A DNA stretch of 12,288 nt, taken from Fibrobacterota bacterium. Lineage in GTDB: Bacteria > Fibrobacterota > Fibrobacteria > UBA11236. Location: contig JAYUVP010000142.1 in assembly GCA_043753995.1 (NCBI GenBank), positions 1-12,288 on the forward strand, written 5' to 3'. The notes below the pieces were generated by a model, which worked only from the letters and a program-made list of their open reading frames with translations, ran no database searches and had not been told where the DNA came from. Made by a program: the position numbers and the translations under genes. Below are positions 1 to 12,288 of the stretch, in pieces. Each line of letters begins with the position of its first letter. Position 1 is the first letter of the stretch.

Positions 1-98
1 TGGCTCAAGCGCTGAGCCAAGGTCGTCAATGCCACGACAAGATTGACTCTGTCAAGTCGCGTTTGGAACGACTGCTGGCGCAATTACCTGAAGAATAA
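1..98 (+). CDS. 5'-partial short coiled-coil protein upstream of zapA (ZapB-like positional equivalent)
   Basis: Manual translation from base 3 gives AQALSQGRQCHDKIDSVKSRLERLLAQLPEE*, with TAA at 96-98, 2 nt before the zapA ATG. The sequence is amphipathic with a heptad-like pattern. Proteobacterial zapA is typically preceded by such a gene. Not in the ORF track. Confidence 0.65.
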   Translation, partial: AQALSQGRQCHDKIDSVKSRLERLLAQLPEE

Positions 99-100
99 AC

Positions 101-415
101 ATGAGTAGCGAGAGTGCGAGTACGCTTGATGTCACAATCCTCGACCGGGAATTCCGCGTCGTCTGCTCGGAAGTGGAGCGCCCAGAATTGCTTGATGCGG
201 TCGCTTATCTTGATGAGAAAATGCACGAGATTCGCGATATCGGCAAGGTCATCACGATCGAGCGCATCGCAATCATGTCTGCCTTAAATATTGCTCATGA
301 ACTACTAACCACACGTCTCGGCACTGGTTTTGACATGAGTGAATTTAAGCGTAGAATAGATTTTATGGAGGCAACCATCGACGCATTACTTGCGGAACAA
401 GATGAGTTGTTTTAG
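101..415 (+). CDS. zapA: cell division protein ZapA
   Basis: 104 aa with ZapA hallmarks: LDVTILDREFRVVC, ELLDAVAYLDEKMHEIR, ERIAIMSALNIAHELL, and a C-terminal coiled coil ending EQDELF (betaproteobacteria-like). Confidence 0.93.
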   Translation: MSSESASTLDVTILDREFRVVCSEVERPELLDAVAYLDEKMHEIRDIGKVITIERIAIMSALNIAHELLTTRLGTGFDMSEFKRRIDFMEATIDALLAEQDELF

Positions 416-501
416 GTTTCCCCTACCACCCAGGGAACCCCCAAGAACCTCCAACCTTACGCCCCCAGCGCTTGTTATCTTCCCTCTCTAAGGACACTCT
501 C

Positions 502-1212
502 ATGCGGGACCCAGGTTTACGTGAGCAGGTCGCCCTGCTTCGCCACCGAATCCATGACGGCCAGCTCCCAGGAGTGGCCTCGCCGGCTTTAAATGAGCTG
601 ACGGATTTGCTGTTCAAGGCGGGCAAGATTTCGGCGGCCATGAATTTGGTCGAGAAGTATTTGGCCGAAGCCCAGGATTTGGAAGAGGATTCGGCCCCCG
701 ACGCGGATTTAGGCCGCAAGCTCTTTGAGCGTGGCCTCGAATTCGCCGATGCCTTTCTCTATGAAGAGGCCGCCGAAGTTCTGGATGCGGCCCTTAAGTT
801 GGGGCATTCGCCCTTTGAAACCCATTATTGCCTGGCCGGGGTTTGTAAAAGCCTGAGTCAATACGAAGAGGCCGAAAAGCATATTCGTAAAAGCTTGGCC
901 CTCAATCCGGCATTTGCGCCCGCCCATGTCCTGCTGGGGGAAATCATCAAGGCCCAGGGTCGTCTGGATGAAAGCATTACGGCTTGCAAGCGGGCTTTAT
1001 TGCTCGACCCGGAATGTTCGGCCGCCTATTATGACCTCGCCTGCTATTACAGCTTGGTGAATGAAGACGATAAGGCCTTGGCTGCCTTGGAGATGGCGCT
1101 TTGTAAAGGCTTCACCGATCAAGACTGGCTCAAGCAAGATCCCGACTTGATTTCGCTGCGGGCTCGTCCCGAATTCAGCTATTTATTGCAAAAGTATCGC
1201 CCCGGCGCCTGA
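502..1212 (+). CDS. tetratricopeptide repeat protein with C-terminal capping TPR
   Basis: Tandem TPR units (THYCLAGVCKSLSQYEEAEKHIRKSLALNP; AHVLLGEIIKAQGRLDESITACKRALLLDP) and a terminal YYDLACYYSL...ALEMALCKGF...LKQDPDLISLR motif. Start moved from TTG 472 to ATG 502, which follows AAGGA at 490-494. Confidence 0.85.
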   Translation: MRDPGLREQVALLRHRIHDGQLPGVASPALNELTDLLFKAGKISAAMNLVEKYLAEAQDLEEDSAPDADLGRKLFERGLEFADAFLYEEAAEVLDAALKLGHSPFETHYCLAGVCKSLSQYEEAEKHIRKSLALNPAFAPAHVLLGEIIKAQGRLDESITACKRALLLDPECSAAYYDLACYYSLVNEDDKALAALEMALCKGFTDQDWLKQDPDLISLRARPEFSYLLQKYRPGA

Positions 1213-1328
1213 AGGCCAGGCTGAGGTCGGTGTGTTTCGCCAACACGGATTCTTGTTCTAAGTCTTGGCGAGTTATCCTGTTACTACCTTTCCTCCCCTC
1301 TTTTCCGAACCCGGCTTGGTGAAGGCTT

Positions 1329-1456
1329 GGCGGTGCTTTGTAGCCGCCTTTCTCTAGTCTTTCGGGTCACGGCCAATTTTTATGTCCTGGCATCGCGTGA
1401 TGTCGATCAAGTTCAGAGGGCTGCCCGCTTCGGCGGAGCATGGCTCCTGGGAGTAA
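1329..1456 (+). promoter_or_regulatory. structured 5' leader and RBS of secDF
   Basis: Hairpins GGCGG..CCGCC (1329-1348), GGCATC-gcgt-GATGTC (1389-1404), CCGC-TTCG-GCGG tetraloop (1425-1436) and GGAGC-atg-GCTCC (1435-1447). SD-like GGGAG at 1449-1453. Function not established. Confidence 0.3.
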
Positions 1457-1457
1457 C

Positions 1458-4133
1458 ATGAAACGGGAAACTGGTTTTCGAACTTTCATTCTGGGCCTTG
1501 TCGGGCTCCTCTGCGTCGCTTGTTTGGTGCCCACCTTACTGGTGTTCTCCAAAAGCAATGACGCGGCCCTACCCCTAGAAAGCCGGCCTCGCGAGATATT
1601 TAAGCGCGAGCATCCCACTCTTTCGGCCCAAAGCCTGAATTTGGGTTTGGATTTGGCCGGTGGTACCCATATCATCGTCGAAATCGACAAGAGCAAGCTA
1701 GAGCCCGAAGCGCGTAAAGACGTGCTCGAGCGCTGCCTCGAAATCATTCGCAATCGCGTCGATCAATACGGTCTTTCCGAACCGGTGATCACCGCTTCGG
1801 GCGACAATCGCATCGTCGCTGACTTGGCCGGCATGGGTGCCGAAGACGCCCGGCGTCTCATCGGCGCCACCGCCATCTTGGAATTCAAGCTGGTTCCTGA
1901 ACCTATCGAGTTGCGCCCGGTCCTAGATCGCGTTGATGCCTTCCTCAATCGCCGAGGCGGCAATAAGACCGTGGCGACTCCGGGTAAGAGCGATACCGCC
2001 CGGGCCTTGGAAAGCATGTTTGGCCGCGTCTCCCAAGATTCGACCCACGGTAATGACAGCCTCAAAGCCGCGACTGCCGACACCTCGAAGGGTGCCTTAG
2101 CCGAAGCCCCAAGCGCCGCGGATAGCGCCGCCTCGGATTCGGCCGACATTGCCGCTTCGGTGGCGGGAGCTCGTCCTTTCTCCTCTTTACTGATTAGCAT
2201 GGGCCGTGACATCGGCGTCAAATTCGAGAATATCGAAAAAGTGCGCGCCCTCCTCGATGACCCCGAAGTGCAGCAAATCATTCCTTCCCGTTTTCAATTC
2301 TTGTGGAGCCGCGAAGTCGAAACCCTGGATGGCGGCGAGCGCGTGCGTCGTCTTTATTTCCTGAAGCATCGTCCCGAAATGACCGGCAATACCATAGCCG
2401 ACGCCCAATTCAATCGCGTGAGCGGAGGTATGACGGCTGGCGAAATGGAAGTCGAGCTGACTTTCAAAGGCATAGGTCCCAAGGAATTCGGTCGTATCAC
2501 AGGCGCCAATGTGGGACGCCAATTGGCTATTGTGCTCGACTCCGTGGTTTACAGCGCTCCTGTGATTCAAGGCCGCATTCCCAATGGCCGCGCCAGCATT
2601 ACCGGCGTGGGCAGTCCTTCGGAAGCCAAGCAATTGGCCGTAACCTTGCGTGCAGGTTCTTTGCCAGCTCCCATGAATATCGTGGAATTGCGTTCGGTGG
2701 GTCCGACCTTGGGCGAGGACAATATCCGCAAGGGCATCTATTCGGCCTTGGTTGCCATGGCCTTGGTCATGGGCTTCATGCTCTATTACTACCGCGTCGG
2801 CGGTCTCATCGCCAGCATCGCGGTTTTCTTTAATCTCTTCATCATCATTTCGGTTTTGTCGGCCTTTCATGCCACCTTAACCTTGCCGGGCATTGCAGGT
2901 ATGGTTTTGACCATCGGCATGGCCGTCGACGCCAACGTGCTGATTTTCGAGCGTATACGTGAAGAATTGCGGGCGGGCCGCAGCCTGCGGGCGGCAATCG
3001 ATGCGGGTTATAAGAAAGCTTTCAGCGCCATTCTCGATTCGAATATCACCACCCTCGGTACCGCTGCCATTCTCTATTATATCGGCATTGGTCCTATCAA
3101 GGGCTTCGGTCTCACCCTGATGATTGGTCTTTGCGCTTCGATGTATACCGCCATCGGCGTCACCCGCTTGGTTCTCGACTATATGCTCGACAAGTGGGAA
3201 TTCAAGAATATCGATATCGGCAAAGGCGTGGAATGGTTTCACAAGGTGGACCTCAAGGTCATTCCCCGCTCACGCATTTTCGTGAGCATCTCGGTGGCCT
3301 TATTCCTGGCATCCTTGGCCTTCGTCGCCATCAAGGGCATGAATCTCGGCATTGACTTCAAAGGGGGGCATGTCTACCGCGTGGCTTTCAACGAAGCACC
3401 CAATGTTGAATCCGTACGCTCTTCCATAGAAGCCCAGGGCCTCGCTGACCCGCAAGTGCAAACCCTCGGTACCAAGGGCGAAAACCGCCTGCTGATTGCC
3501 TTGCCTAAAGGTGAGAATGATTCGAGCACCAAGTTCCTTGTGCAAAAGGCCATAGGATCGGCGACCATTGAGGGCGAAGACACCGTGGGCCCTTCGGTTT
3601 CCAAAGACTTGAGCTGGGCCGCCATCCTCTCGATTGCGCTGGCCTGCCTACTTATCGTGCTCTATGTCTGGTTCCGTTTCGGTCGCAATGGTCTTGGTTT
3701 CGGCTTGGGCGGCGTCATCGCCATCCTTCACGACATTGTCATCACCATGGGTGTCTTTGCCCTTTTGGGCCGAGAACTCTCGCTCGATTTCGTGGCGGCC
3801 ATTCTGACCATTATCGGTTATTCCTTGAATGACTCGATTATCATCTTCGACCGTATTCGCGAGCTCGGCACCAATGCTTCCGCCAAGGAAAGCTTTGCCA
3901 CGCGCGTGAACAATGCCAATAATCAGTGCTTGTCGCGCTCCATCATCACTCACTTAACCGTGCTTTTCACCGTGGTGGTCTTGGCCAGCATGGGTGGCAG
4001 CAGCGTTCGGGACTTCAATATTGCCATGACCATTGGCGTGGTCGTCGGAACTTTCTCGACCATAGCCGTCGCCTGCCCCTTCGTGGTGTGGTGGGATCGC
4101 CGTCGCATCGCGCCTCCGGTGAAGGCCGCTTAA
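1458..4133 (+). CDS. secDF: fused protein translocase subunit SecDF
   Basis: SecD motifs LNLGLDLAGG, IIRNRVDQYGLSEP, LAIVLD..VYSAP, LRAGSLPAP, VGPTLG, GMAVDANVLIFERIREE. SecF motifs LGIDFKGG, VGPSVSKDL, GYSLNDSIIIFDRIRE. ATG 1458 follows GGGAG and is preferred over 1440. Confidence 0.97.
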   Translation: MKRETGFRTFILGLVGLLCVACLVPTLLVFSKSNDAALPLESRPREIFKREHPTLSAQSLNLGLDLAGGTHIIVEIDKSKLEPEARKDVLERCLEIIRNRVDQYGLSEPVITASGDNRIVADLAGMGAEDARRLIGATAILEFKLVPEPIELRPVLDRVDAFLNRRGGNKTVATPGKSDTARALESMFGRVSQDSTHGNDSLKAATADTSKGALAEAPSAADSAASDSADIAASVAGARPFSSLLISMGRDIGVKFENIEKVRALLDDPEVQQIIPSRFQFLWSREVETLDGGERVRRLYFLKHRPEMTGNTIADAQFNRVSGGMTAGEMEVELTFKGIGPKEFGRITGANVGRQLAIVLDSVVYSAPVIQGRIPNGRASITGVGSPSEAKQLAVTLRAGSLPAPMNIVELRSVGPTLGEDNIRKGIYSALVAMALVMGFMLYYYRVGGLIASIAVFFNLFIIISVLSAFHATLTLPGIAGMVLTIGMAVDANVLIFERIREELRAGRSLRAAIDAGYKKAFSAILDSNITTLGTAAILYYIGIGPIKGFGLTLMIGLCASMYTAIGVTRLVLDYMLDKWEFKNIDIGKGVEWFHKVDLKVIPRSRIFVSISVALFLASLAFVAIKGMNLGIDFKGGHVYRVAFNEAPNVESVRSSIEAQGLADPQVQTLGTKGENRLLIALPKGENDSSTKFLVQKAIGSATIEGEDTVGPSVSKDLSWAAILSIALACLLIVLYVWFRFGRNGLGFGLGGVIAILHDIVITMGVFALLGRELSLDFVAAILTIIGYSLNDSIIIFDRIRELGTNASAKESFATRVNNANNQCLSRSIITHLTVLFTVVVLASMGGSSVRDFNIAMTIGVVVGTFSTIAVACPFVVWWDRRRIAPPVKAA

Positions 4134-4159
4134 CTCAAGCGTTAAGCCTCAGAAAAATC

Positions 4160-4191
4160 AAAAGCCGGCGGTTCGCACTGCCGGCTTTTTT
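4160..4191 (+). terminator. rho-independent terminator, probably bidirectional
   Basis: AAAA-GCCGGCGGT-tcgc-ACTGCCGGC-TTTTTT: a 9-bp stem with one G-U pair, a T6 tail and an A-run on the other side. It lies 26 nt after the secDF stop, between convergent genes. Confidence 0.9.
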
Positions 4192-4291
4192 ATTGGGGAA
4201 GATGGAGGTCGCAGCGGCTGAAAGTCCCTTGGCCGTGCTGCGGGGCGGCCAATCGTCTGAGCAAATAGAACGCTTTGCGCGTCTAAAGCCC

Positions 4292-4888
4292 TTAGCGGTC
4301 CCTGCCTAGAATGCGGAATAGACGGACAGTCAATTCGGTGATGCGGGCTTCGCGCTCGGAGCCGAAGCGATTGCGCTTGATGACGTCGAGAGCCTCTTGG
4401 GCAAACATGGTGCTGCTTTCGTCATTGCCGCGCGAGGCTTGCAATTCGGCCAGAGTCCGGTCGATTTCAATCCAGGCCATGATGTATTCGGACTCACCCT
4501 GGATTTCGACGAGGTTTTGCGCGACTTGACGGGCGCGGCAATACCAAATCACCGCTTCTTCCGTATCGTTTTGGGCGCGAGCAAGACGCAGGGTATCGAG
4601 CAAAAGCGAAGGCCCGAATTCTCGCTCACCGTGGTGAAAGAAAAGCCGATGGCGCAAATCGCGCATGACTTCGAGCTGCTGAGCCTCTTCGACGGTGTTT
4701 ACGGCTTCGCTTTCGAAAAGCTCAGGAGTGGAGGCCCAACCGGCGGTGGGAATGAAGTCATAGGGTAAATCCTGACCTGGATTTTCCTCGCTCTTGCTTT
4801 CGGGAGATTCGACTAAGCTCAGCCAAGTGGCTCGCAGCGAAAAGTAAGACATCGGTATTTGGGGTCTCCTTACCCAAGAGTCTACCAT
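4292..4888 (-). CDS. hypothetical alpha-helical protein (possibly degenerate TPR-like)
   Basis: 198-aa ORF filling the gap, with protein-like composition and helical segments (TEEAVIWYCRARQVAQNL, LAELQASRGN..FAQEALDVIKR). Alternative start ATG 4852 has AAGGAG upstream. No family recognised. Confidence 0.65.
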   Translation of the reverse strand: MVDSWVRRPQIPMSYFSLRATWLSLVESPESKSEENPGQDLPYDFIPTAGWASTPELFESEAVNTVEEAQQLEVMRDLRHRLFFHHGEREFGPSLLLDTLRLARAQNDTEEAVIWYCRARQVAQNLVEIQGESEYIMAWIEIDRTLAELQASRGNDESSTMFAQEALDVIKRNRFGSEREARITELTVRLFRILGRDR

Positions 4889-4906
4889 ATCTTGGGTCAG
4901 GATGCC

Positions 4907-5004
4907 AGTTTTACCAAGGTCTGACTAAAACTCGTATTTCTCTAATTGATAAGGATTTAGGGGCATTTTGAGATGCTTGTGAGCTTTGGGGCAAGCTCTC
5001 AAAA
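4907..5004. repeat. cluster of intergenic inverted repeats
   Basis: AGTTTTA/TAAAACT (4907-4913/4926-4932). TTTTGAGA-t-GCTTG (4966-4979) pairs with CAAGC-TCTCAAAA (4992-5004) around a 12-nt loop. Confidence 0.5.
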
Positions 5005-5074
5005 CTCAAGCTAAAGCTGGGCTTTTTGAGCTTTTGCAAGTAAAAGTTGGAGTGAGCATTGAGCCTTAGAGCCA

Positions 5075-5827
5075 CTAAAACGGTAGGGTATCGAGATAAG
5101 CCTTGCTGACTTGAACGGCTTCCCAAATATCAGTAGCGCATTCATCCAGTTCTATGAGAACCCATTCGAGGGGAGCTTTGGCTTGCAGGGCCGCCGAGAT
5201 TGCTCCATGAATGTCCACCACGCCTTGGCCAAGCGCCGTCATGGGTAGGCCATGCTTGGCCGGGCCATCCTTGGCATGCAAGAGACGAACGCGCGAAGCA
5301 TAGTTGCGCACCATGGCGACCGGATCGAGTCCGCCGGTTTTCAGCCAATAGAGATCGAATTCCACCTCGGCTGAAGAACAAAGATCCAAGTAGCGACGGC
5401 CGCGGTCCACGGAAGCGAATTCCCAATCGTGATGATGCAAGCACATGCGCAAGCCTTGCCCCGCCAGCGATTGGGCTTGAGCTTGCGCCGATTGCGCCAG
5501 GGAAAGCATGTCGGCATCGTTGGTGAAAGGCGAGGCAGGAAAGCTCCACACCAAATTCGCATGGCCCAATTGCTGGGCCTCAAGTATTCGGCGAGGCAAG
5601 TCTATAGCCAAGCTATCGCCCATATGCGCGGCAGCGACCTTGAGATGAAAGGTGGTGAGGGCTTGGATGAGATCGGAAATAGGTAGGGGCAAGTCGCCAT
5701 AAAGCTCAACGCCTTGCAGGCCGAGATCGGCGCAACGGCGTAAGGTGCCAATGGGATCGCGCTGCCAATCGTCGCGCACGGTCCAAAGCTGTATGCCGAC
5801 GGAGAATGGATGGCGAGGGTCGGGCAA
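5075..5827 (-). CDS. sugar phosphate isomerase/epimerase (xylose isomerase-like / AP endonuclease 2 TIM barrel)
   Basis: GIQLWTVRD, GLQGVELYG, LHHHDWEF, EFDLYW, LLHAKDG, GQGVVD and WVLIELD match the metal-ligand pattern of this family. TTG start lies 3 nt after the upstream stop. Confidence 0.88.
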   Translation of the reverse strand: MPDPRHPFSVGIQLWTVRDDWQRDPIGTLRRCADLGLQGVELYGDLPLPISDLIQALTTFHLKVAAAHMGDSLAIDLPRRILEAQQLGHANLVWSFPASPFTNDADMLSLAQSAQAQAQSLAGQGLRMCLHHHDWEFASVDRGRRYLDLCSSAEVEFDLYWLKTGGLDPVAMVRNYASRVRLLHAKDGPAKHGLPMTALGQGVVDIHGAISAALQAKAPLEWVLIELDECATDIWEAVQVSKAYLDTLPF

Positions 5828-5830
5828 GGC

Positions 5831-6373
5831 TTATTTCTCGGTGAGAGCCTTAAGGTTGGCGAAACCTTTCTCGAAATCTTTGCCGACCATTTTGTCCATG
5901 CTGACGAAAAGAGTCATCACCTTATGCATATAAAGACTAGGCCCATACATGGCCCAGGTGACTTCGGAGGATTGGCCTTCATTCACGGGAGCCACCGTGA
6001 ATTCGGTCATGTTATGGCCTTCCATGGGCGTGATAAAGTCGAGTTTGAGCAGGACCTTACTGGGTGAAGCGGACTCGGTGATTTCCATGCGGCCAGAGCC
6101 CACTTTATTATTGCCGCTCCATTCGTAAATGGCTCCGACGCCAGATTCTGAGCCGCTAAAGGTTTTCTTCATTTCGGGATCGAGCTTGGACCAAGGTGAC
6201 CAATTATCCCAATGATGGAAATCATTCAGTACCGTGAAAACTTTTTCCGGAGGAGCTTGAATCACGGTCTTGCGTTCCATGCGGAAGCTATCGGGCTGGG
6301 TGGTGGCGTAAAGAAGAATGCCGCCGATGATTCCGGCGACGACGATGAGGGCGGTGAGGAGTTTTCGTTTCAT
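5831..6373 (-). CDS. SRPBCC (START-like, polyketide cyclase/dehydrase) family protein with N-terminal membrane anchor
   Basis: Hydrophobic N-terminus, then FRMERKTVIQAPPEKVF..LNDFHHWDNWSPW, GVGAIYEWSGN..VGSGRMEI and GKDFEKGFANLKALTE. ATGA overlap with the upstream gene at 6370-6373. Confidence 0.9.
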   Translation of the reverse strand: MKRKLLTALIVVAGIIGGILLYATTQPDSFRMERKTVIQAPPEKVFTVLNDFHHWDNWSPWSKLDPEMKKTFSGSESGVGAIYEWSGNNKVGSGRMEITESASPSKVLLKLDFITPMEGHNMTEFTVAPVNEGQSSEVTWAMYGPSLYMHKVMTLFVSMDKMVGKDFEKGFANLKALTEK

Positions 6374-7245
6374 GGCAAATCCTTGGCCAGGCGTTTAATG
6401 AGGGTTTCATGCACAAGACTATTGCTGGCGATGAGGCCGCATCGCAAGATGGGCTCGACTTGTCGCCAGTCTATGGGCATGCCAGCGAGATCGGTGAGTT
6501 GCCCGCCGGCTTCAGTCAAGATAAGACTGGGAGCGGCAATGTCCCATAAGCCCATGGGATTTTCCGCCGGGGAAATGAAGGCGGTATATTCGCCACGCGC
6601 GACTTCATTGATTTTGAGCGATCCGCTCATGCGTTGCGAGGGCGGTTGGCCGAGGCGATGGAGCAAGTCTTGCAAGCCAGGGGTGACGCGGCCATGCGAA
6701 GTCACCAGGGAAATGCTTTGGCTTTTGGCGACGTGCACGCGCAGCCAGGCTTGAGGCGTATCGGCTTTGTCATGAGTATCGGCAAAGGTGCGCCAGGCGC
6801 CTTGTCCACGTGCGGCGACATAGAGCTCACCTAACTCGGGCTTATAAGTCACTCCAGCCACGGGCTCGCCGCCTTCGCAGAGGGCCACGATGACGCCATA
6901 GTGCGGATGCCCGCGCAAAAAGCTGCTGGTCGAATCCAAGGGATCGATGACGAAACAGCGATGGGCGAGCCGCCAATCAACCGAGGCGCGATGCTGCAAA
7001 TAGGTTTCTTCATTGAGCAAAGCGGCGTCTGGGAAAGCGCTGTGCAGGGCGGCATCGATTAAGGTAGCGGCGGCATGATCAGCTTCGCTGACCCAGCTCT
7101 GATCTTCTTTTCGCCATGCTGAGGTCGCGGTTTGGGGGCGATGACGCATGTGAAGCAAAAGGCTGCCAGCTGCTAAAACGGCTTCTTGCATGGCCGCCAA
7201 TTCGGCTTGATAGGGCTTGGGCCCGGAACTCGCGTCGAAAAACAT
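6370..7245 (-). CDS. inositol monophosphatase family protein, CysQ-like 3'(2'),5'-bisphosphate nucleotidase
   Basis: FIG/IMPase motifs KEDQSWVSEAD, LLNEE, FVIDPLDST (canonical DPLDGT), YVAARGQGAW, SGSLK and WDIAAPSLILTEAGGQLTD. Confidence 0.88.
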   Translation of the reverse strand: MFFDASSGPKPYQAELAAMQEAVLAAGSLLLHMRHRPQTATSAWRKEDQSWVSEADHAAATLIDAALHSAFPDAALLNEETYLQHRASVDWRLAHRCFVIDPLDSTSSFLRGHPHYGVIVALCEGGEPVAGVTYKPELGELYVAARGQGAWRTFADTHDKADTPQAWLRVHVAKSQSISLVTSHGRVTPGLQDLLHRLGQPPSQRMSGSLKINEVARGEYTAFISPAENPMGLWDIAAPSLILTEAGGQLTDLAGMPIDWRQVEPILRCGLIASNSLVHETLIKRLAKDLP

Positions 7246-7247
7246 CG

Positions 7248-7260
7248 ACGCTAAGATTAA
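7248..7260. repeat. left copy of imperfect 13-bp direct repeat (ACGCTAAGATTAA)
   Basis: Matches 11996-12008 (ACGCTTAGGTTAA) at 11/13 positions. Lies in the 16-nt gap between the MNIO partner stop and the IMPase start. Confidence 0.45.
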
Positions 7261-7261
7261 G

Positions 7262-7525
7262 TCAGGGGACGCGCTTCCCCAACCACCTCATGATTCGGGC
7301 AATGCGGCTTTGAGGTTTGCGCGCGGCATATCCCTCTCGCTTCGCTCGGAATGAGCGGGCTGCCATCACCAGTCCAGCCTTGTCCACGCCTTCCAAGGCC
7401 ATGCGCTCACTTGGAGACAAATCCGCTCCATCGAGAATCGTCGCGGGGTGGGCTAAAAAGGCGGTTAGGTCATTGGGGTCCGCATAGAGGCGGGCTAGGG
7501 TTGTTTCCAATCCTTGTGCGCTCAT
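7262..7525 (-). CDS. small helical protein, putative MNIO partner
   Basis: 87 aa from ATG 7525, which overlaps the MNIO stop as ATGA with AGGAAG upstream. Sequence LETTLARLYADPNDLTAFLAHP...LSPSERMALEGVDKAGLVMAARSFRAKR. The partner role is inferred from translational coupling to DUF692. Confidence 0.75.
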   Translation of the reverse strand: MSAQGLETTLARLYADPNDLTAFLAHPATILDGADLSPSERMALEGVDKAGLVMAARSFRAKREGYAARKPQSRIARIMRWLGKRVP

Positions 7526-8403
7526 GTCTTCCTGGCCTTGCATTCTTGTTCTACGCGCGCACTGCGCAAAATTTCTCGCGCCCGGCGCAATTGCCCCAGC
7601 AGGATTTCCACCGGAGGATAGGCCCCGTCGCGTTCCAGAATCACGGTGAGAGGGCGATCGACGAGGCGCGCCAAGGTTCCCAGTAATCGAAAGACTGCAT
7701 CCGGGGGATCGTGAATGTGATCGTCTAATAGCCGTTTGCGGCCGGGTTCGGCGGCAAAGCGAGGGGGCTCAGGAATCCAATGGCCGCCACTCAAGTGAAC
7801 CTGGGTCACGCATTCCAGAGGAAATCCCAGCATAAAGGTTTCCGGATCGAGACCCGAGTTGAGGGCATTGGCATAAAGATTATGCAAATCAAGCAGCATG
7901 CCCGAACCAGATTCCCTCATGATGGCGCTAGTCCATTCGGGCTCTTCCATTTCTGAGCCAGGAGGCTGAATGAGGGTGGCAATATTCTCAAGGGTGGGTG
8001 CCAATCCGGTGACGGCGCGGATGTGATCCAGATTACGCATGGTTCCTTCTACCGTGGATGGGGTGCGCGGCGGTGCGGCCAAATGGCCGATTTCATAGCC
8101 TCCCGCGCGCACAAAGGAAAGATGCTCGGACCAGGCTTCGGCACCCAGAGCTTCCAGCGTGCGCGCAATGCGCTCTACGCGGGGTTTGCTCACGGGGTGA
8201 GAGCTCGCCATCCCCAAGCCGACGCCGTGATAAGTCACGGGAATTTGGCTGGCCAAGGTCCGTAACGCGCGCGTTTCCTTCGCGGGAGCTCCCACATAGC
8301 CATCCAAAAGCACCTCGACGACATCGATTTCGTCTCGATGGGAAAGAATGGCTGAGGCCAGCTCCGGGCGCCAGCCTAAGCCGACTTTGTCGGTTCTAAT
8401 CAC
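7522..8403 (-). CDS. DUF692 family multinuclear non-heme iron-dependent oxidative enzyme (MNIO)
   Basis: VGLGWRPEL, YHGVGLG, WSEHLSF, LENIA, LLDLHNLYANALN, QVHLSGG, LLDDHIH and VILERD give the His/Asp/Glu iron-ligand set of DUF692. Likely start GTG 8403 (293 aa) overlaps the upstream gene end. The ORF-track extension to 8439 is an alternative reading of the upstream Gly-rich tail. Confidence 0.93.
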   Translation of the reverse strand: MIRTDKVGLGWRPELASAILSHRDEIDVVEVLLDGYVGAPAKETRALRTLASQIPVTYHGVGLGMASSHPVSKPRVERIARTLEALGAEAWSEHLSFVRAGGYEIGHLAAPPRTPSTVEGTMRNLDHIRAVTGLAPTLENIATLIQPPGSEMEEPEWTSAIMRESGSGMLLDLHNLYANALNSGLDPETFMLGFPLECVTQVHLSGGHWIPEPPRFAAEPGRKRLLDDHIHDPPDAVFRLLGTLARLVDRPLTVILERDGAYPPVEILLGQLRRAREILRSARVEQECKARKT

Positions 8404-9316
8404 CGCCGCCACCCCCACAGCCTCCGCAGCCCCCACCACCGCCGCAGCTGCTACTGCTGCCGCTGCTACAACTGCCCCCGCTCACGCTGGAGCATCCAGA
8501 CGATCCACATCCTACCGACGACCCATTCCCTGACGCAGCCTGTGGGAAAAGCTTTTTTGCAAATGCAAACTTCGGCATGTTCAAAGCTTGGATGCCGAAT
8601 ACAGCAGCCAATAACACCACCTCATTGGTCATGCCGCCGGGTTCTAGCATATGGGCTCGTCGCCGGAGCCCCGAGAACAACGTTTGCAGATCTTCAATGA
8701 CACGATCTCCCATGCCGGTCCGTTTGCGAAACAGCATGTAAGTGAGAATGAATGCGACCACCCCAGCCAAAAGCATTAGGAAAACAAAATTGTGTCGACC
8801 ATTCGAAATAGCCACGGTGATTTTGAACCCTGCCAGCCCTAATAGAAGGCTCATGGCTATGGAAAAAGGTCCGGCGCGTTCTCGGATGGTTCGGTCATCG
8901 GCAAATAGGCGCCGCTTTTGGAGGCTGTCACGATAAGCCTCGGCAGCCCTGGATACGGCTAGATTGTCGAACATTTTCCAAGCCAAATCCGCTGAAACAA
9001 ATCGCTCCAAGATGGCCTTTTCCAAAGGGCGTCGCACCTGATCTTTGGACGTGTCACTTTGGGTTTTCAAGGTATCCTTATTCGCTTTGAGCAGGCCCCT
9101 ATCTACCAGGGAAATGACGGCAATGCGTATGGCCTCATGCGGGCCGCCGCGCAGAAAAGCGATTTCAAAAGGGTCGGTGAGCGCTAAGGTGGAAATCTCA
9201 CCCTCTGATTCACGAGAGTATACCCAGTAACGGTAAGCCCATAGGACGGCAGAACCCGTCACCAAATAAAAAAGCAAAAATGCTGGCCCAGCAAATTCAA
9301 AGGGATTCAGGCCCAT
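8396..9316 (-). CDS. TIGR04222 domain-like integral membrane protein with C-terminal Gly/Ser/Cys-rich tail
   Basis: N-terminal NPFEFAGPAFLLFY, DPFEIAFLRGGPHEAIRIAVISLVDRGLL, about 3 TM helices, and the tail SGNGSSVGCGSSGCSSVSGGSCSSGSSSSCGGGGGCGGCGGGGGD. This architecture matches the TIGR04222 description as I recall it. Confidence 0.88.
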   Translation of the reverse strand: MGLNPFEFAGPAFLLFYLVTGSAVLWAYRYWVYSRESEGEISTLALTDPFEIAFLRGGPHEAIRIAVISLVDRGLLKANKDTLKTQSDTSKDQVRRPLEKAILERFVSADLAWKMFDNLAVSRAAEAYRDSLQKRRLFADDRTIRERAGPFSIAMSLLLGLAGFKITVAISNGRHNFVFLMLLAGVVAFILTYMLFRKRTGMGDRVIEDLQTLFSGLRRRAHMLEPGGMTNEVVLLAAVFGIQALNMPKFAFAKKLFPQAASGNGSSVGCGSSGCSSVSGGSCSSGSSSSCGGGGGCGGCGGGGGD

Positions 9317-9320
9317 GGGC

Positions 9321-10070
9321 TTACCGTAACGCCTGGGATCGAGTGCGCAAGGCTCCGGCTAGGTCCAATAATTCAGCGAAGCATTGAGCGGCCCGACCCG
9401 GTGGCAAGTCTCGGTCTTCGCGAGCCAAGGACATGTCCTCCAATGCCTTGGCCCATGGGCCGCCAGGCGAGCTCATAGCCAAAGCCACCAGGGCTTCTTT
9501 GGGACGAGTTTCGGTGGCCCCTTCCAGTTGAGCAAGAGAGGAAGCGCATCCCCGCAGCGGTCCGGCCATTTCGGCGATCACGGCGGTGAGCTGTTCTTCC
9601 CGAAGGCTGATTAAGGCATAGCGTTCGCGCATGCGCAAAATCAAGTTCAAGAGGGACTGCCGCAATCGGCTGATGGTCGCTTCTCGCGAAATCTTTAAAT
9701 CCACTAAGGGATCGAGGCCCCATAGGACGCGATACCGGTGGAGAATGTCCGAAAACTTCACGGCAAAGGCTTCCGCCGCATCGCCTATTTCCGCTTCGAG
9801 TAGGAACATCACATTCAGCTTCACGGCAGCATGAGCCAGGCGAAAAGCCTCGCGGAGGCCGTCGATGCGAGTGGGATGGAAAGCCTTTAAAACCACTATC
9901 AAATTGACATCCGATGTCGGACGCAAACGCCCCTCTGCCGCGGAACCGAATAGGAGGATGGAAACGAGATCGTGGCCACAGGCCTCAATGGCTGCCGTGG
10001 TAAATCCGGTAACCCCGGCCCGCACGGGGGCGGGAAGATCGGCCAATTCTTTTTCCAACACTTTTTCCAT
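9321..10070 (-). CDS. Pol-beta superfamily nucleotidyltransferase domain protein with helical C-terminal domain
   Basis: LVSILLFGSAAEGRLRPTSDVNLIVVL is an hGS..DxD-type motif, here DxN. Start ATG 10070 (249 aa, AAAGG upstream) avoids overlap with the divergent gene. The stop is 4 nt before the TIGR04222-like ATG. Confidence 0.82.
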   Translation of the reverse strand: MEKVLEKELADLPAPVRAGVTGFTTAAIEACGHDLVSILLFGSAAEGRLRPTSDVNLIVVLKAFHPTRIDGLREAFRLAHAAVKLNVMFLLEAEIGDAAEAFAVKFSDILHRYRVLWGLDPLVDLKISREATISRLRQSLLNLILRMRERYALISLREEQLTAVIAEMAGPLRGCASSLAQLEGATETRPKEALVALAMSSPGGPWAKALEDMSLAREDRDLPPGRAAQCFAELLDLAGALRTRSQALR

Positions 10071-10155
10071 CGGATCGCCTTTGTTTTCAAGGAAGCATAC
10101 GGGCACGGATAATTCCGCAGTAACGTAGCAGGAGAGGTTAGCATTGGAAGACACT

Positions 10156-11991
10156 ATGACGCTCACAGAAAAAGAAAACAACCTAGATCCAGCGGCTTTC
10201 TACGCGTCGCGCAGAAAGCACTATTCCGATTCCCTCGCCAAGGCGCGCCGGGCCTCGGCCTTGCACAGCAATGCGCGTTTTCTCATTTTTATTGGCTGCC
10301 TTATTGTTGTGCTGGTATTGGGGTATCTGGGCCTTTATCTGCTTACCGCTGGCGCCTTGGTGCTCGGTATCATTTCGTTCACGGTCCTGGTGCTGCGGCA
10401 TGAGCGTATCGAAAGCGCTATTCTCGTCGAAGACTATTTGCATTCCATACAAGTCGCCGGTGAGGCTCGTCTCACGGGTAAGTGGAAAGATTTTGCGGAT
10501 CGGGGCGATGAATTCGCCGACGAGAAGCATCCCTATGCCAATGATTTAGACCTATTCGGGCGCGCCTCTTTTTTCCAATGGACAAACGCCGCGGAGACCT
10601 GCCTTGGCCGTCAAAAATTAGCGGAGTACTTGAAGGTAGGCTCCCCGGTGCGGCTGGAAATAGAGAAGCGCCAAAGCATGGTGAAGGAGTTGGCGAACCA
10701 AGCCATTTGGCGACAGGATTTTCAAGCGGCTGGCAAGGGGGTTGTGAGGGCGAAGGAGAAGCCAGAAGACTTGATGGGTTGGGCGGAAGGTGAGACTGGA
10801 ATCAAGTTCGCTCCCGTGGCCATTCTAGCGATTCGTACCTGGGGGCTCATCGTACCCGCATGCGCCTTGATCTTTGGCTTCTTCACTCCCATACCTGCCT
10901 TAGCGGCATTGCCTGCCTTTCTGAATGCCATGGTGATTTACTGGTTCAGCGCTCGTAGCAAACCCGTCATTGCCTCCCTCTGCCTGCAGCGAACAAATCT
11001 TCAGGCTTATCAGAATATGCTTCGCCTCATAGAAGAAGCGAAATTCAATGGGCCTGGATTGGTGGCCTTGGCTGCCACGGTAAAGGACGGCAAGGTTACG
11101 GGATCAAGGCAAGCGCAGGAGCTAGTCACCATCGCGGAATGGCTCGATGTCCGTGCCAATCCTCTGGTTCATTTTGTCTTGAATTTCCTATTCCTCTGGG
11201 ACTTGCAATGGCTGATCGGTTTTCAGGGCTGGAAGTTGAGGAGCGGAAAGGCATTGCGGATGTGGCTTGAGTGCATCGCCACCTTGGAAGCGCTGTCTAG
11301 TCTTGCTGCCATTCGCTTCGAGAATCCCGATTGGTGTTTCCCATCCTTCTCGGAAGGCGGGCAAGCCTCTGTGCGGGCCGAGAGTCTTGGGCATCCCCTC
11401 CTCTTATCGAGAGATAGAGTCCGCAACGATTTTACCCTGGGTGATCCCGGTTGCGGCTTGATACTTACGGGTTCGAATATGACGGGGAAAAGCACGTGGC
11501 TACGTACGGTGGGTATCAACTTGGCCATGGCCTATACAGGGGCACCGGTCTGCGCGCGCGAATTGTCTACCCACCTATTCCACCTTCATACTTCGATGCG
11601 CCTGCATGACGATTTGGACCAAGGCATTTCTTCTTTTTATGCGGAATTGCTTCGCCTACGGGGCCTACTGGATGCCGCCCGTAGCGGAGGCCAAGTACTA
11701 TTTCTCGTTGACGAAATATTTCGGGGTACCAACTCCGTCGATCGGGTGGCAGGTGCGATAGAGGTACTTCTGCAATTGGCACGCCTGGGCTGTACGGGCA
11801 TAGTTTCCACCCATGATCTTGAATTGGGACGGCTCGCCGAAAGCCATCCCAACCTATTTCGCAATGGCCATTTCAGCGAGCATTTCGAAGATGGGAAAAT
11901 ACGCTTCGATTTTCGACTTCAGTCGGGAATTTCCACCACGCGCAATGCCATTCACCTGATGCGCTTGGCGGGAGTGACGCCGCCGGAGTAG
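10156..11991 (+). CDS. membrane-anchored MutS-related ATPase (MutS domain V, no mismatch-binding domain)
   Basis: N-terminal TM hairpin, HPYANDLDLFGRASFFQW, LGHPLL, Walker A LTGSNMTGKSTWLRT, SSFYAEL, Walker B FLVDEIFRGTNS, STHDLEL and TRNAIHLMR. ATG 10156 follows GGAAG. Not MutS1 or MutS2. Confidence 0.9.
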   Translation: MTLTEKENNLDPAAFYASRRKHYSDSLAKARRASALHSNARFLIFIGCLIVVLVLGYLGLYLLTAGALVLGIISFTVLVLRHERIESAILVEDYLHSIQVAGEARLTGKWKDFADRGDEFADEKHPYANDLDLFGRASFFQWTNAAETCLGRQKLAEYLKVGSPVRLEIEKRQSMVKELANQAIWRQDFQAAGKGVVRAKEKPEDLMGWAEGETGIKFAPVAILAIRTWGLIVPACALIFGFFTPIPALAALPAFLNAMVIYWFSARSKPVIASLCLQRTNLQAYQNMLRLIEEAKFNGPGLVALAATVKDGKVTGSRQAQELVTIAEWLDVRANPLVHFVLNFLFLWDLQWLIGFQGWKLRSGKALRMWLECIATLEALSSLAAIRFENPDWCFPSFSEGGQASVRAESLGHPLLLSRDRVRNDFTLGDPGCGLILTGSNMTGKSTWLRTVGINLAMAYTGAPVCARELSTHLFHLHTSMRLHDDLDQGISSFYAELLRLRGLLDAARSGGQVLFLVDEIFRGTNSVDRVAGAIEVLLQLARLGCTGIVSTHDLELGRLAESHPNLFRNGHFSEHFEDGKIRFDFRLQSGISTTRNAIHLMRLAGVTPPE

Positions 11992-11995
11992 GGTA

Positions 11996-12008
11996 ACGCT
12001 TAGGTTAA
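11996..12008. repeat. right copy of imperfect 13-bp direct repeat (ACGCTTAGGTTAA)
   Basis: 11/13 identical to 7248-7260. It includes the stop codon of the minus-strand gene ending at 12005. Confidence 0.45.
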
Positions 12009-12288
12009 CGTACCGTCAGAGCAGCGGATCCCTGAAAGCCCATGCGGCCCTGTAATTGCCCAGAGGCATTCCACTCCAAGACATAGCCCTGGCGTTGGCC
12101 GCGATTTCGGACTTCCAGGCTGAGGCGTGACCCATCGGGGCGCCAGCGCACTTGCAAGCCATGAGGCAAACGCTGGCCATCCGGCAAGACAAGTAGAGCC
12201 TTTTCTTCGGCCAATTGCCCATTCGGATGATACTGACGCTCGACTTCCACGCGATCGCAAGCTGTGAAAAAAAGGCCTAGCGAAAAAC
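12005..12288 (-). CDS. 5'-partial MORN-variant repeat (YwqK-like) probable lipoprotein
   Basis: Repeats QYHPNGQLAEE, HGLQVRWRPDGS and QGYVLEWNASGQL. The frame stays open upstream of GTG 12250 to the window edge and reads FSLGLFFTACDRVEV, a hydrophobic stretch with lipobox-like FTAC. Confidence 0.7.
   Translation of the reverse strand, partial: FSLGLFFTACDRVEVERQYHPNGQLAEEKALLVLPDGQRLPHGLQVRWRPDGSRLSLEVRNRGQRQGYVLEWNASGQLQGRMGFQGSAALTVR

Follow-up and report, generated by a model that had tools for sequence, protein, structure and literature searches.

MNIO enzymes (DUF692) are a rapidly expanding family of peptide maturases that may also act on proteins of full size. In the bufferin system, the MNIO BufB and its partner BufC make copper-binding 5-thiooxazoles from Cys (Leprevost et al., PNAS 2024, PMC11626156). 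According to that article, the 5-thiooxazole had previously been reported just once, as the product of a radical S-adenosylmethionine (SAM) enzyme. For the latter, PMC12668002 cites Lewis et al. (Biochemistry 2021), and it extends 5-thiooxazole formation to other MNIO clusters. The heterocycle is described as diagnosed by a shift of -4 Da per Cys, absorbance at ~305 nm and a nuclear magnetic resonance signature (PMC11626156, PMC12668002). An in silico survey describes the pairing of MNIO genes with those of TIGR04222 membrane proteins as frequent (Antoine, Leprevost ... Jacob-Dubuisson, Microb Genom 2025, PMC12452194). The survey proposes the Ser/Gly-rich, Cys-bearing tails of TIGR04222 proteins as probable MNIO substrates, in clusters described as having no DUF2063 gene, and it places their MNIOs close to the bufferin and oxazolin groups. 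It also reports PME-type 2 (DUF2063-like) partners in at least 10% of the TIGR04222-MNIO clusters, and a group of very small unexplained proteins, 'adjamnio-V' (PMC12452194). The pairing and the idea that the tail is the substrate are therefore already published as a bioinformatic hypothesis. Here, we describe a compact four-gene test case for protein modification by an MNIO, found in a 12,288-nucleotide stretch of a Fibrobacterota genome (GCA_043753995.1, contig JAYUVP010000142.1, positions 1 to 12,288; hereafter the window). It joins a TIGR04222 membrane protein and an MNIO to a nucleotidyltransferase (NTase)-like protein and a small protein of 87 amino acids.

The four genes are tightly coupled on the minus strand in the order NTase-like protein, TIGR04222 membrane protein, MNIO and small protein, as read from the open reading frame (ORF) list and family scans (Table 1). 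An original prediction, made from the letters of the window, had described a 4-nt gap, an 8-nt overlap and an ATGA overlap between them, and had mentioned that TIGR04222-DUF692 linkage was noticed bioinformatically. The ORF list confirms all three junctions, and the linkage is the one published in PMC12452194. The gap separates the stop codon of the NTase-like gene from the ATG of the membrane protein gene. The MNIO, read from a GTG, overlaps the last codons of the membrane protein gene by 8 nt (GTGATTAG), and its own stop codon forms the ATGA overlap with the start of the small protein gene. A longer ORF from 8439 provides an alternative MNIO start. Homologues of the NTase-like protein begin aligning at its ATG, and an upstream TTG at 10181 would add 37 unconserved residues. 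The only non-coding gaps are the 4 nt within the operon and the 73 nt upstream of it, which leaves no room for an unannotated precursor gene inside the operon. The ORF list holds no other candidate substrate or Cys-bearing ORF in the operon either. We think it rather probable that the MNIO and the small protein modify the Cys tail of the TIGR04222 protein, probably to thiooxazoles, as a self-contained four-gene cassette. The original prediction had likewise let the MNIO and a partner act on the tail Cys residues, a proposal now supported by gene linkage, a predicted enzyme-partner complex, the lack of another substrate and a replacement of the MNIO by radical SAM enzymes.

Sequence searches yield few matches to the small protein, 12 at E ≤ 1e-3, and the alignment of these matches (A1) was used as the query for related loci. 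A1 retrieved 25 loci from species-representative genomes, and their gene content was read by tblastn with the window proteins. These genome loci all come from metagenome-assembled genomes (MAGs) of Alpha- and Betaproteobacteria, Acidobacteriota, Verrucomicrobiae and a 'Deltaproteobacteria' bin. An MNIO lies directly upstream of the small protein in all 25 (one at a contig end, one fragmented). In 24 of them, TIGR04222 precedes the MNIO, and the remaining locus begins inside the MNIO. Of the 22 loci whose upstream sequence can be read, 17 have an NTase upstream of TIGR04222. Eight loci have no NTase match, three of which (L010, L015 and L026) have no upstream sequence and so are not assessable. 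Gene order and strand are identical across the genome loci, and the ATGA overlap between MNIO and small protein is seen in 15 of the 25 as well as in the window. The flanking genes differ from locus to locus (dnaA/dnaN, citrate synthase, Lon, DNA polymerase III and similar). A Pfam scan of 141 flanking ORFs at the 25 loci found nothing common and no conserved protease, exporter or regulator. The earlier remark that no short precursor, protease or exporter is evident in the window agrees with both the gap lengths and the flanking genes. In two of the MAG loci (L022 and L028), the TIGR04222 and/or MNIO genes are split into shifted frames, possibly by decay or assembly error; both loci were excluded from the alignments and tail statistics.

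A second test was based on the NTase, with an alignment of 17 NTase-like proteins (A2) and the best 80 of 436 metagenome relatives retained. Here, TIGR04222 lies downstream of the NTase in 63/63 loci with at least 300 nt of sequence, and an MNIO in 26 of the 35 loci with at least 1300 nt. The small protein was found by tblastn in 17 of the 26 loci with at least 2150 nt, and ORF listing revealed an 18th (L090), again with the ATGA overlap. When only MNIO-bearing metagenome loci with room for it are counted, the small protein is present in 18/18. The NTase-like protein is more tightly tied to the membrane protein than the MNIO is. Conserved co-occurrence of the genes, which the original prediction had named as a point to check, is borne out by the same order in 25/25 genome loci and in the metagenome loci, and the arrangement is therefore not due to chance. 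The cassette NTase was found in none of the 40 relatives searched (0/40, a count that includes the unpublished genome G025). This absence indicates a patchy distribution, as expected of a mobile accessory module.

Nine metagenome loci have enough downstream sequence yet carry no MNIO. Where the tail is complete in these loci, it is Cys-rich in every case, with 5-7 Cys in the last 60 residues. A radical SAM/SPASM gene stands beside the NTase-TIGR04222 pair in seven of the nine. In L038 (6671-7699), L064 (6664-7692) and L096 (1820-2842), the enzyme matches TIGR04082, SbtM (thio(seleno)oxazole maturase), with 476-504 bits against a cut-off of 350. These SbtM-type enzymes are 341-343 residues long and cover positions 195-516 of the 516 in the model; its N-terminal third is therefore not present in them. 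L034 has a partial SbtM-like enzyme at a contig end, detected by tblastn only. In L054 (748-1920), L072 (1181-2254) and L074 (3790-4962), the gene directly upstream of the NTase encodes another type of radical SAM/SPASM enzyme, and this type also precedes the NTase in eight more metagenome loci that lack downstream sequence. Its best NCBIfam scores are to TIGR04053, SbtM and the ACGX system, each below cut-off, and it looks like a not yet described maturase acting on the same tails.

Across the 105 loci overall, an MNIO is present in 51, a radical SAM enzyme in 15 and both in none. None of the radical SAM loci contains the small protein, and the small ORFs beside the radical SAM genes belong to no family and show no likeness to it. 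Two unrelated classes of Cys-to-thiooxazole enzymes thus alternate beside the same Cys-tailed protein, which argues for the tail as the substrate and for thiooxazole as the likely product. We regard this alternation, as read from gene content, as probably the strongest argument for both.

The MNIO matches PF05114 with 202.2 bits against a cut-off of 25, over model positions 2-262 of 263, and the membrane protein matches TIGR04222 with 112 bits against a cut-off of 43, over positions 2-228 of 229. Both family assignments of the original prediction therefore hold against hidden Markov models. The nearest NCBIfam model of the MNIO is BufB (NF050167), with 156.8 bits and under the cut-off of 310, followed by HvfB with 123 bits. 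For TglH, the iron ligands are given as H71, H107, E151, D184, H216 and E258 (Fe1, Fe2) and D184, N187, D229 and H231 (Fe3) (PMC10880893). Their equivalents in the window MNIO, numbered from the 8403 start, are H59, H94, E139, D172, N175, H203, D227, H229 and E257. In a profile alignment to TglH, 3BWW and MbnB, all nine positions are invariant in 23/23 cassette MNIOs. The ligands are thus intact, as had been noticed at the outset, and by its ligand set the MNIO looks competent. The same genome encodes a second MNIO on contig C252 (L001, 1459-2340), which passes the BufB cut-off (320.2 bits vs 310) and has small unannotated ORFs upstream. The sole DUF2063 match of the genome lies on another contig, C322, and DUF2063 occurs in 26 of 41 relatives (a count that includes G025).

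The small protein has no Pfam match even at E ≤ 10. All 34 members of its family match NF038399 ('Os1348 family NHLP clan protein') at E ≤ 1, with a best E of 2.8e-12, and the window member scores 26 bits, below the cut-off of 40. TIGR04509 (NHLP-related peptide) is matched by 18 of the 34, models of LigA-type dioxygenase alpha subunits (PRK13379, PRK13367) by 8-11 and Nif11 leaders by five. The best profile match in the PDB, with a weak E of 0.012, is the SonA/LigA-domain precursor of a peptide (RiPP) that is synthesised ribosomally and modified post-translationally, and its relatives. Members of the family have in common a helix with the invariant sequence E-A-F-L-A-R-L-Y and a conserved ...A-A-R-S-F-x-x-K-R, after which comes a basic tail without conservation. 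This tail ranges from ~4 to ~40 residues after the K-R, and several members stop right after ...KR. The family alignment contains no Cys, no conserved column past the K-R motif and no conserved C-terminal motif. An apparent homology to the folded NHLP-type leader, together with the lack of a core peptide, points to an enzyme subunit rather than a substrate, and the small protein would then be an MNIO subunit derived from a leader domain. A DUF2063 (PME-type 1) identity was considered and rejected: hhalign against 19 DUF2063 domains from relatives gave a probability of 0.06%, and there is no DUF2063 in the window. Neither of the PME-type 2 references, 3DEE (NGO1945) and 8HI7 (TglI), is among the PDB profile matches at E ≤ 10.

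In complex modelling, the MNIO and the small protein are predicted to bind each other with an ipSAE of 0.93, and the best of three controls reached 0.00. A score of 0.93 is attained by 116 of 157 solved complexes and by 2 of 215 mismatched pairs, counts that are approximate because own alignments were used. The three runs of the complex agree in at least 90% of contacts, with a predicted local distance difference test (pLDDT) of at least 78 for the partner. Helices 1-16 and 39-66 of the small protein are predicted to contact MNIO loops 67-69, 97-117, 143-149 and 210-226; the predicted contact residues include 7-15 and 51-55 of the small protein and 99-109 and 144-145 of the MNIO. These loops follow the ligand-bearing strands, which would place the small protein at the catalytic face. 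The partner anticipated in the original prediction is thus retained as a predicted MNIO-binding protein, but it is not of the usual DUF2063 type.

The AlphaFold2 (AF2) model of the membrane protein (pLDDT 85.5) has a first transmembrane segment (TM1) at residues 11-37, a soluble helix/beta-hairpin domain at 49-134, TM2 at 141-172 and TM3 at 178-195. Short helices at 201-256 and a disordered tail at 263-306 (pLDDT <50) follow TM3. From residue 263 to its end, the window protein is rich in Gly, Ser and Cys, with 8 Cys. The 59 unique tails of the family have 3-7 Cys; the residue after Cys is Gly in 295 of 326 instances, and a Cys-Cys spacing of 4 is the most frequent. From the first Cys onwards, 96% of residues are Gly, Ser or Cys, and Ser accounts for 22% of the tail. 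A conserved segment, ...AAVFG..ALP...FP...LFP, precedes every tail, and its ...L-L-A-A-V-F-G... part forms a helix of only 11 residues (230-240). Between TM3 and this short helix, 21 homologues have a mean of 6.95 K+R vs 2.19 D+E, and the loop between TM2 and TM3 is six residues long. By the positive-inside rule, the excess of K+R makes the region after TM3 cytoplasmic. The soluble domain and the tail would then probably share the cytoplasm with the three partners, which lack signal peptides, provided that the short helix does not span the membrane. However, this helix may form a kinked fourth membrane span.

Other routes to the fold and topology of the membrane protein were tried and set aside. 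Foldseek found no match in the PDB at E ≤ 0.001. A wide VIA-align comparison returned only generic three-helix-bundle matches, the best with a Z of 11.1 (ribosome recycling factor); such matches are common for helical bundles, and no function was drawn from them. An approach through DUF2207_C was dropped as well, with a weak PF20990 match (23 bits, cut-off 33) and no bona fide DUF2207_C in 61 genomes of the class at E ≤ 1e-10.

The NTase-like protein matches PF01909 with 22.5 bits against a cut-off of 21, and its AF2 model has a pLDDT of 95.3. The best Foldseek matches extend over its whole length and are AAD(9)/AadA/ANT-3,9 (TM-score 0.60-0.65, E ~1e-6, ~270 columns); kanamycin nucleotidyltransferase and HalB come next. 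Scores against NCBIfam fall far below the cut-offs, and the ESM Atlas returned 'hypothetical protein / NTP_transf_2' clusters and nothing else. The active-site motif reads G-S...S-D-V-N, and a profile alignment sets the S-D-I-D of ANT-3,9/AadA against its S-D-V-N. The second metal-binding Asp is therefore replaced by Asn, N56, which is invariant in 17/17 aligned sequences. A family profile search found 348 representatives at E ≤ 1e-30, the best 150 of which were inspected at the N56 position. Among these 150, N is present in 139, S in one, H in one and D/E in none, and nine were unparsed; of four unparsed sequences that were printed, two have S-D-V-N and two have long N-terminal extensions. 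The G-S, the first Asp and an invariant Glu94 are retained. The original call of an NTase is thus correct for the fold and the Pfam family, but the canonical second catalytic Asp is missing. By sequence, the family is a distinct clade of the ANT fold with an altered active site. The N56 change, the 63/63 linkage and the persistence of the protein with either class of maturase argue for an adaptor or chaperone of the substrate, or for an atypical enzyme acting on it. Either role, with the adaptor or chaperone serving the tail or else the cytoplasmic domain, is more likely than that of a standard adenylyltransferase. Neither the small partner nor the short SbtM-like enzymes seem to have their own domain for peptide recognition, and this would fit the idea of an NTase adaptor.

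Taken together, the four proteins suggest the following pathway. The substrate would be the disordered C-terminal tail of Gly, Ser and Cys that the TIGR04222 membrane protein carries. The MNIO and the 87-residue protein are predicted to pair as a heterodimer, with the small protein on the catalytic face of the barrel. This pair would oxidise the tail Cys, most likely to 5-thiooxazoles, like the related bufferin maturases. The NTase-like protein, a constant companion of the membrane protein under either maturase, may serve as an adaptor or chaperone or act as an atypical enzyme. The product would be a membrane-anchored metal-binding tail rich in sulphur and nitrogen, somewhat more probably on the cytoplasmic side. 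If so, the defined tail of 44 residues should show a mass change of about -4 Da for each Cys, the absorbance of a thiooxazole and an ability to bind metal.

Several points weigh against this proposal. All of its support is comparative or predicted. L056 and L099 have no adjacent maturase of either class and retain Cys-rich tails, and a third of TIGR04222-bearing genomes are reported to be without any MNIO (PMC12452194); Cys tails can therefore exist without an MNIO. The MNIO does not reach the BufB cut-off and may therefore catalyse a different reaction. The score of the complex may owe something to a resemblance to MbnBC and TglHI, complexes that have been solved. The case for a cytoplasmic tail is built on K/R counts and a helix of 11 residues, and it contradicts the periplasmic placement given in PMC12452194. 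Finally, five loci, all from Acidobacteriota (L012, L014, L016, L020 and L024), have only the other three genes of the cassette, with a different gene or none in the place of the NTase. When four of these NTase-less Acidobacteriota genomes, which are incomplete MAGs, were searched in full, two gave weak matches (93 and 55 bits) and the other two none, and the NTase is therefore not essential everywhere.

Tails without a neighbouring maturase (L056, L099), the published third of genomes without an MNIO (PMC12452194) and the canonical BufB elsewhere in the genome would all be expected if the genes were linked by shared physiology, such as metal or redox stress, with the MNIO acting on an unlinked peptide and the Cys tail binding metal unmodified. 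Such a loose association fits poorly with overlapping start and stop codons, a gene order that is constant across phyla and an operon with no other Cys-bearing ORF. It also does not account for the mutually exclusive swap, in one and the same position, with a different class of peptide maturase that modifies Cys, and we consider it very improbable. A more specific alternative makes the 87-residue protein the true RiPP precursor, with an NHLP-type leader and a short basic core, and the TIGR04222 protein an exporter, immunity or anchoring factor. Its family resemblances agree with this: NF038399, matched by 34/34 members, is the PflA/PosA precursor family of an MNIO-containing cluster (bioRxiv 10.1101/2025.10.30.685615, as described there), TIGR04509 is matched by 18, the best PDB match is the precursor SonA and the protein is predicted to bind the MNIO. 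Yet the confident MNIO contacts come from its folded helices, and the ~4-40 residues that would have to serve as the core are unconserved, without Cys or a C-terminal motif. Radical SAM cassettes without the small protein still keep the Cys tail, and a precursor role is accordingly quite unlikely.

General RiPP logic would instead have the modified tail cut off and released as a free Gly/Ser/Cys peptide metallophore, with the membrane protein as a giant leader and the ...AAVFG..ALP...FP...LFP segment as its recognition or cleavage region. Release by proteolysis was one of the outcomes envisaged in the original prediction, and it found no support: none of the 25 genome loci has a conserved protease or exporter nearby, and the anchor domains are as strongly conserved as the tail. 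We therefore judge it unlikely. The role of the NTase-like protein leaves more latitude. If catalytically active, it could carry out a further modification and nucleotidylate either the tail, at Ser hydroxyls or newly formed thiols, or some small molecule. The full two-domain ANT fold, the retained G-S, first Asp and invariant Glu94, the 63/63 linkage to the membrane protein and a tail with 22% Ser make this conceivable. We nevertheless doubt it, given an Asn for the second carboxylate in 17/17 aligned sequences and in at least 139 of the best 150 representatives, D/E in none of these, and the existence of three-gene cassettes without the NTase.

Modification of the tail by the MNIO and its small partner thus remains the preferred explanation, and a more elaborate version of it can be put forward tentatively. 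In this version, a pseudo-NTase would recognise the substrate, a coreless NHLP-type leader would act as an obligatory in-trans subunit, and an O2-dependent MNIO and an O2-independent radical SAM enzyme would be interchangeable for the same thiooxazole chemistry on a cytoplasmic, membrane-anchored tail. We see this combination as possible, though on the doubtful side. Relative to the 2025 survey, the cassette adds a pseudo-nucleotidyltransferase that is always paired with the membrane protein and a leader-like small subunit that is predicted to bind the MNIO. It further adds a mutually exclusive replacement of MNIO by radical SAM enzymes, which would independently name the likely chemistry, and a probable cytoplasmic location of the tail. 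The text of PMC12452194 and two of its supplementary files do not mention nucleotidyltransferase, NTP_transf, NHLP or SPASM. Radical SAM comes up in them only in the footnote of an introductory table (as 'SAM radical') and in the title of a reference, not in relation to TIGR04222. We found no literature linking an MNIO with a nucleotidyltransferase or NHLP for such a cassette.

Table 1. Features of the four-gene cassette and its upstream region (positions in the window).
Feature	Position	Strand	Remarks
NTase-like protein, 249 aa	9321..10070	-	ATG at 10070, stop 9321-9323; AadA/ANT(3'')(9)-type two-domain fold
TIGR04222 membrane protein, 306 aa	8396..9316	-	ATG at 9316, stop 8396-8398
C-terminal Gly/Ser/Cys tail, residues 263-306, 44 residues	8399..8530	-	Proposed substrate
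MNIO (DUF692), 293 aa	7522..8403	-	GTG start at 8403, stop 7522-7524
Small partner protein, 87 aa	7262..7525	-	ATG at 7525; leader-like helical domain and variable basic tail
Intergenic region between the operon and the divergent MutS-domain gene	10071..10143		73 nt; presumed promoter region

The cassette is bordered in the window by genes of other kinds. A gene of the CysQ/inositol monophosphatase family (6370-7245, minus strand) begins 16 nt past the stop codon of the small protein gene, and co-transcription is possible. Upstream, a divergent gene (10144-11991, plus strand) encodes a protein of 615 residues, hydrophobic in segments of its N-terminal part and with a MutS domain V ATPase in its C-terminal part (PF00488, 88.7 bits), which looks like a membrane-anchored MutS-related protein. 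In tblastn searches, neither neighbour has a counterpart at any of the 25 related genome loci. A scan for promoters and terminators found sites no more frequent than chance, with a single sigma-70-like match on the plus strand (10084-10113). Farther away, the plus strand carries housekeeping genes between 101 and 4133, namely ZapA (101-415), a TPR protein (472-1212) and a fused SecDF (1440-4133), the last scoring 718 bits against a subfamily model cut-off of 721.

Compared with the TIGR04222-MNIO clusters described in PMC12452194, the cassette differs in several respects. The partner there, where found, is a DUF2063-like PME-type 2 protein, whereas the small protein here is NHLP/LigA-like and gives no DUF2063 signal. 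The tail is placed in the periplasm there, whereas charge counts favour the cytoplasm here. The published set is mostly from Actinomycetota, and the loci described here come from Proteobacteria, Acidobacteriota, Verrucomicrobiota and others.

The individual proteins also have known counterparts. Like AadA, ANT(3'')(9) and AAD(9), the NTase-like protein combines an N-terminal NTase domain with a C-terminal helical domain, and its G-S...S-D aligns with theirs. However, sequence identity is 11-16%, the D-I-D of AadA stands against D-V-N, and there is no reason to expect an aminoglycoside substrate. The small protein resembles the LigA subunit of LigAB, in that a small helical protein of the LigA/NHLP clan is paired with a non-haem iron enzyme. 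Unlike the MNIO, LigB is not a TIM barrel, the similarity is weak, and any functional parallel would be tentative. The best-matching sequence family of the small protein is PflA/PosA (Os1348 family, NF038399), a folded helical leader domain encoded beside an MNIO. The Os17 family is reported to supply the PflA/PosA precursor in a Pseudomonas cluster whose MNIO is fused to a nitroreductase, with a folded NHLP-type leader at its N-terminus (bioRxiv 10.1101/2025.10.30.685615). According to this source, PflA carries a modified C-terminal core with a Gln run and an ARMD motif, unlike the small protein of the cassette.

The maturases themselves connect the cassette to two sources of thiooxazoles. 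SbtM (TIGR04082) takes the place of the MNIO beside the NTase-TIGR04222 pair in the sister loci, and it is described as yielding the same heterocycle from Cys as the bufferin MNIOs (PMC11626156). Unlike the MNIO, it belongs to an unrelated family that depends on SAM and Fe-S clusters, and it is not present in the window. The bufferin system (BufA/BufB/BufC) offers the other parallel, with BufB as the nearest model of the cassette MNIO and Cys as the target. Its substrate is a small Sec-exported protein and its partner a DUF2063 protein with a RiPP recognition element (BufC), whereas in the cassette these positions would be filled by the tail of a membrane protein without a signal peptide and by an 87-residue NHLP-like protein. 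If the tail is cytoplasmic, the modified TIGR04222 protein would be a membrane-anchored intracellular chelator, unlike the periplasmic bufferins.

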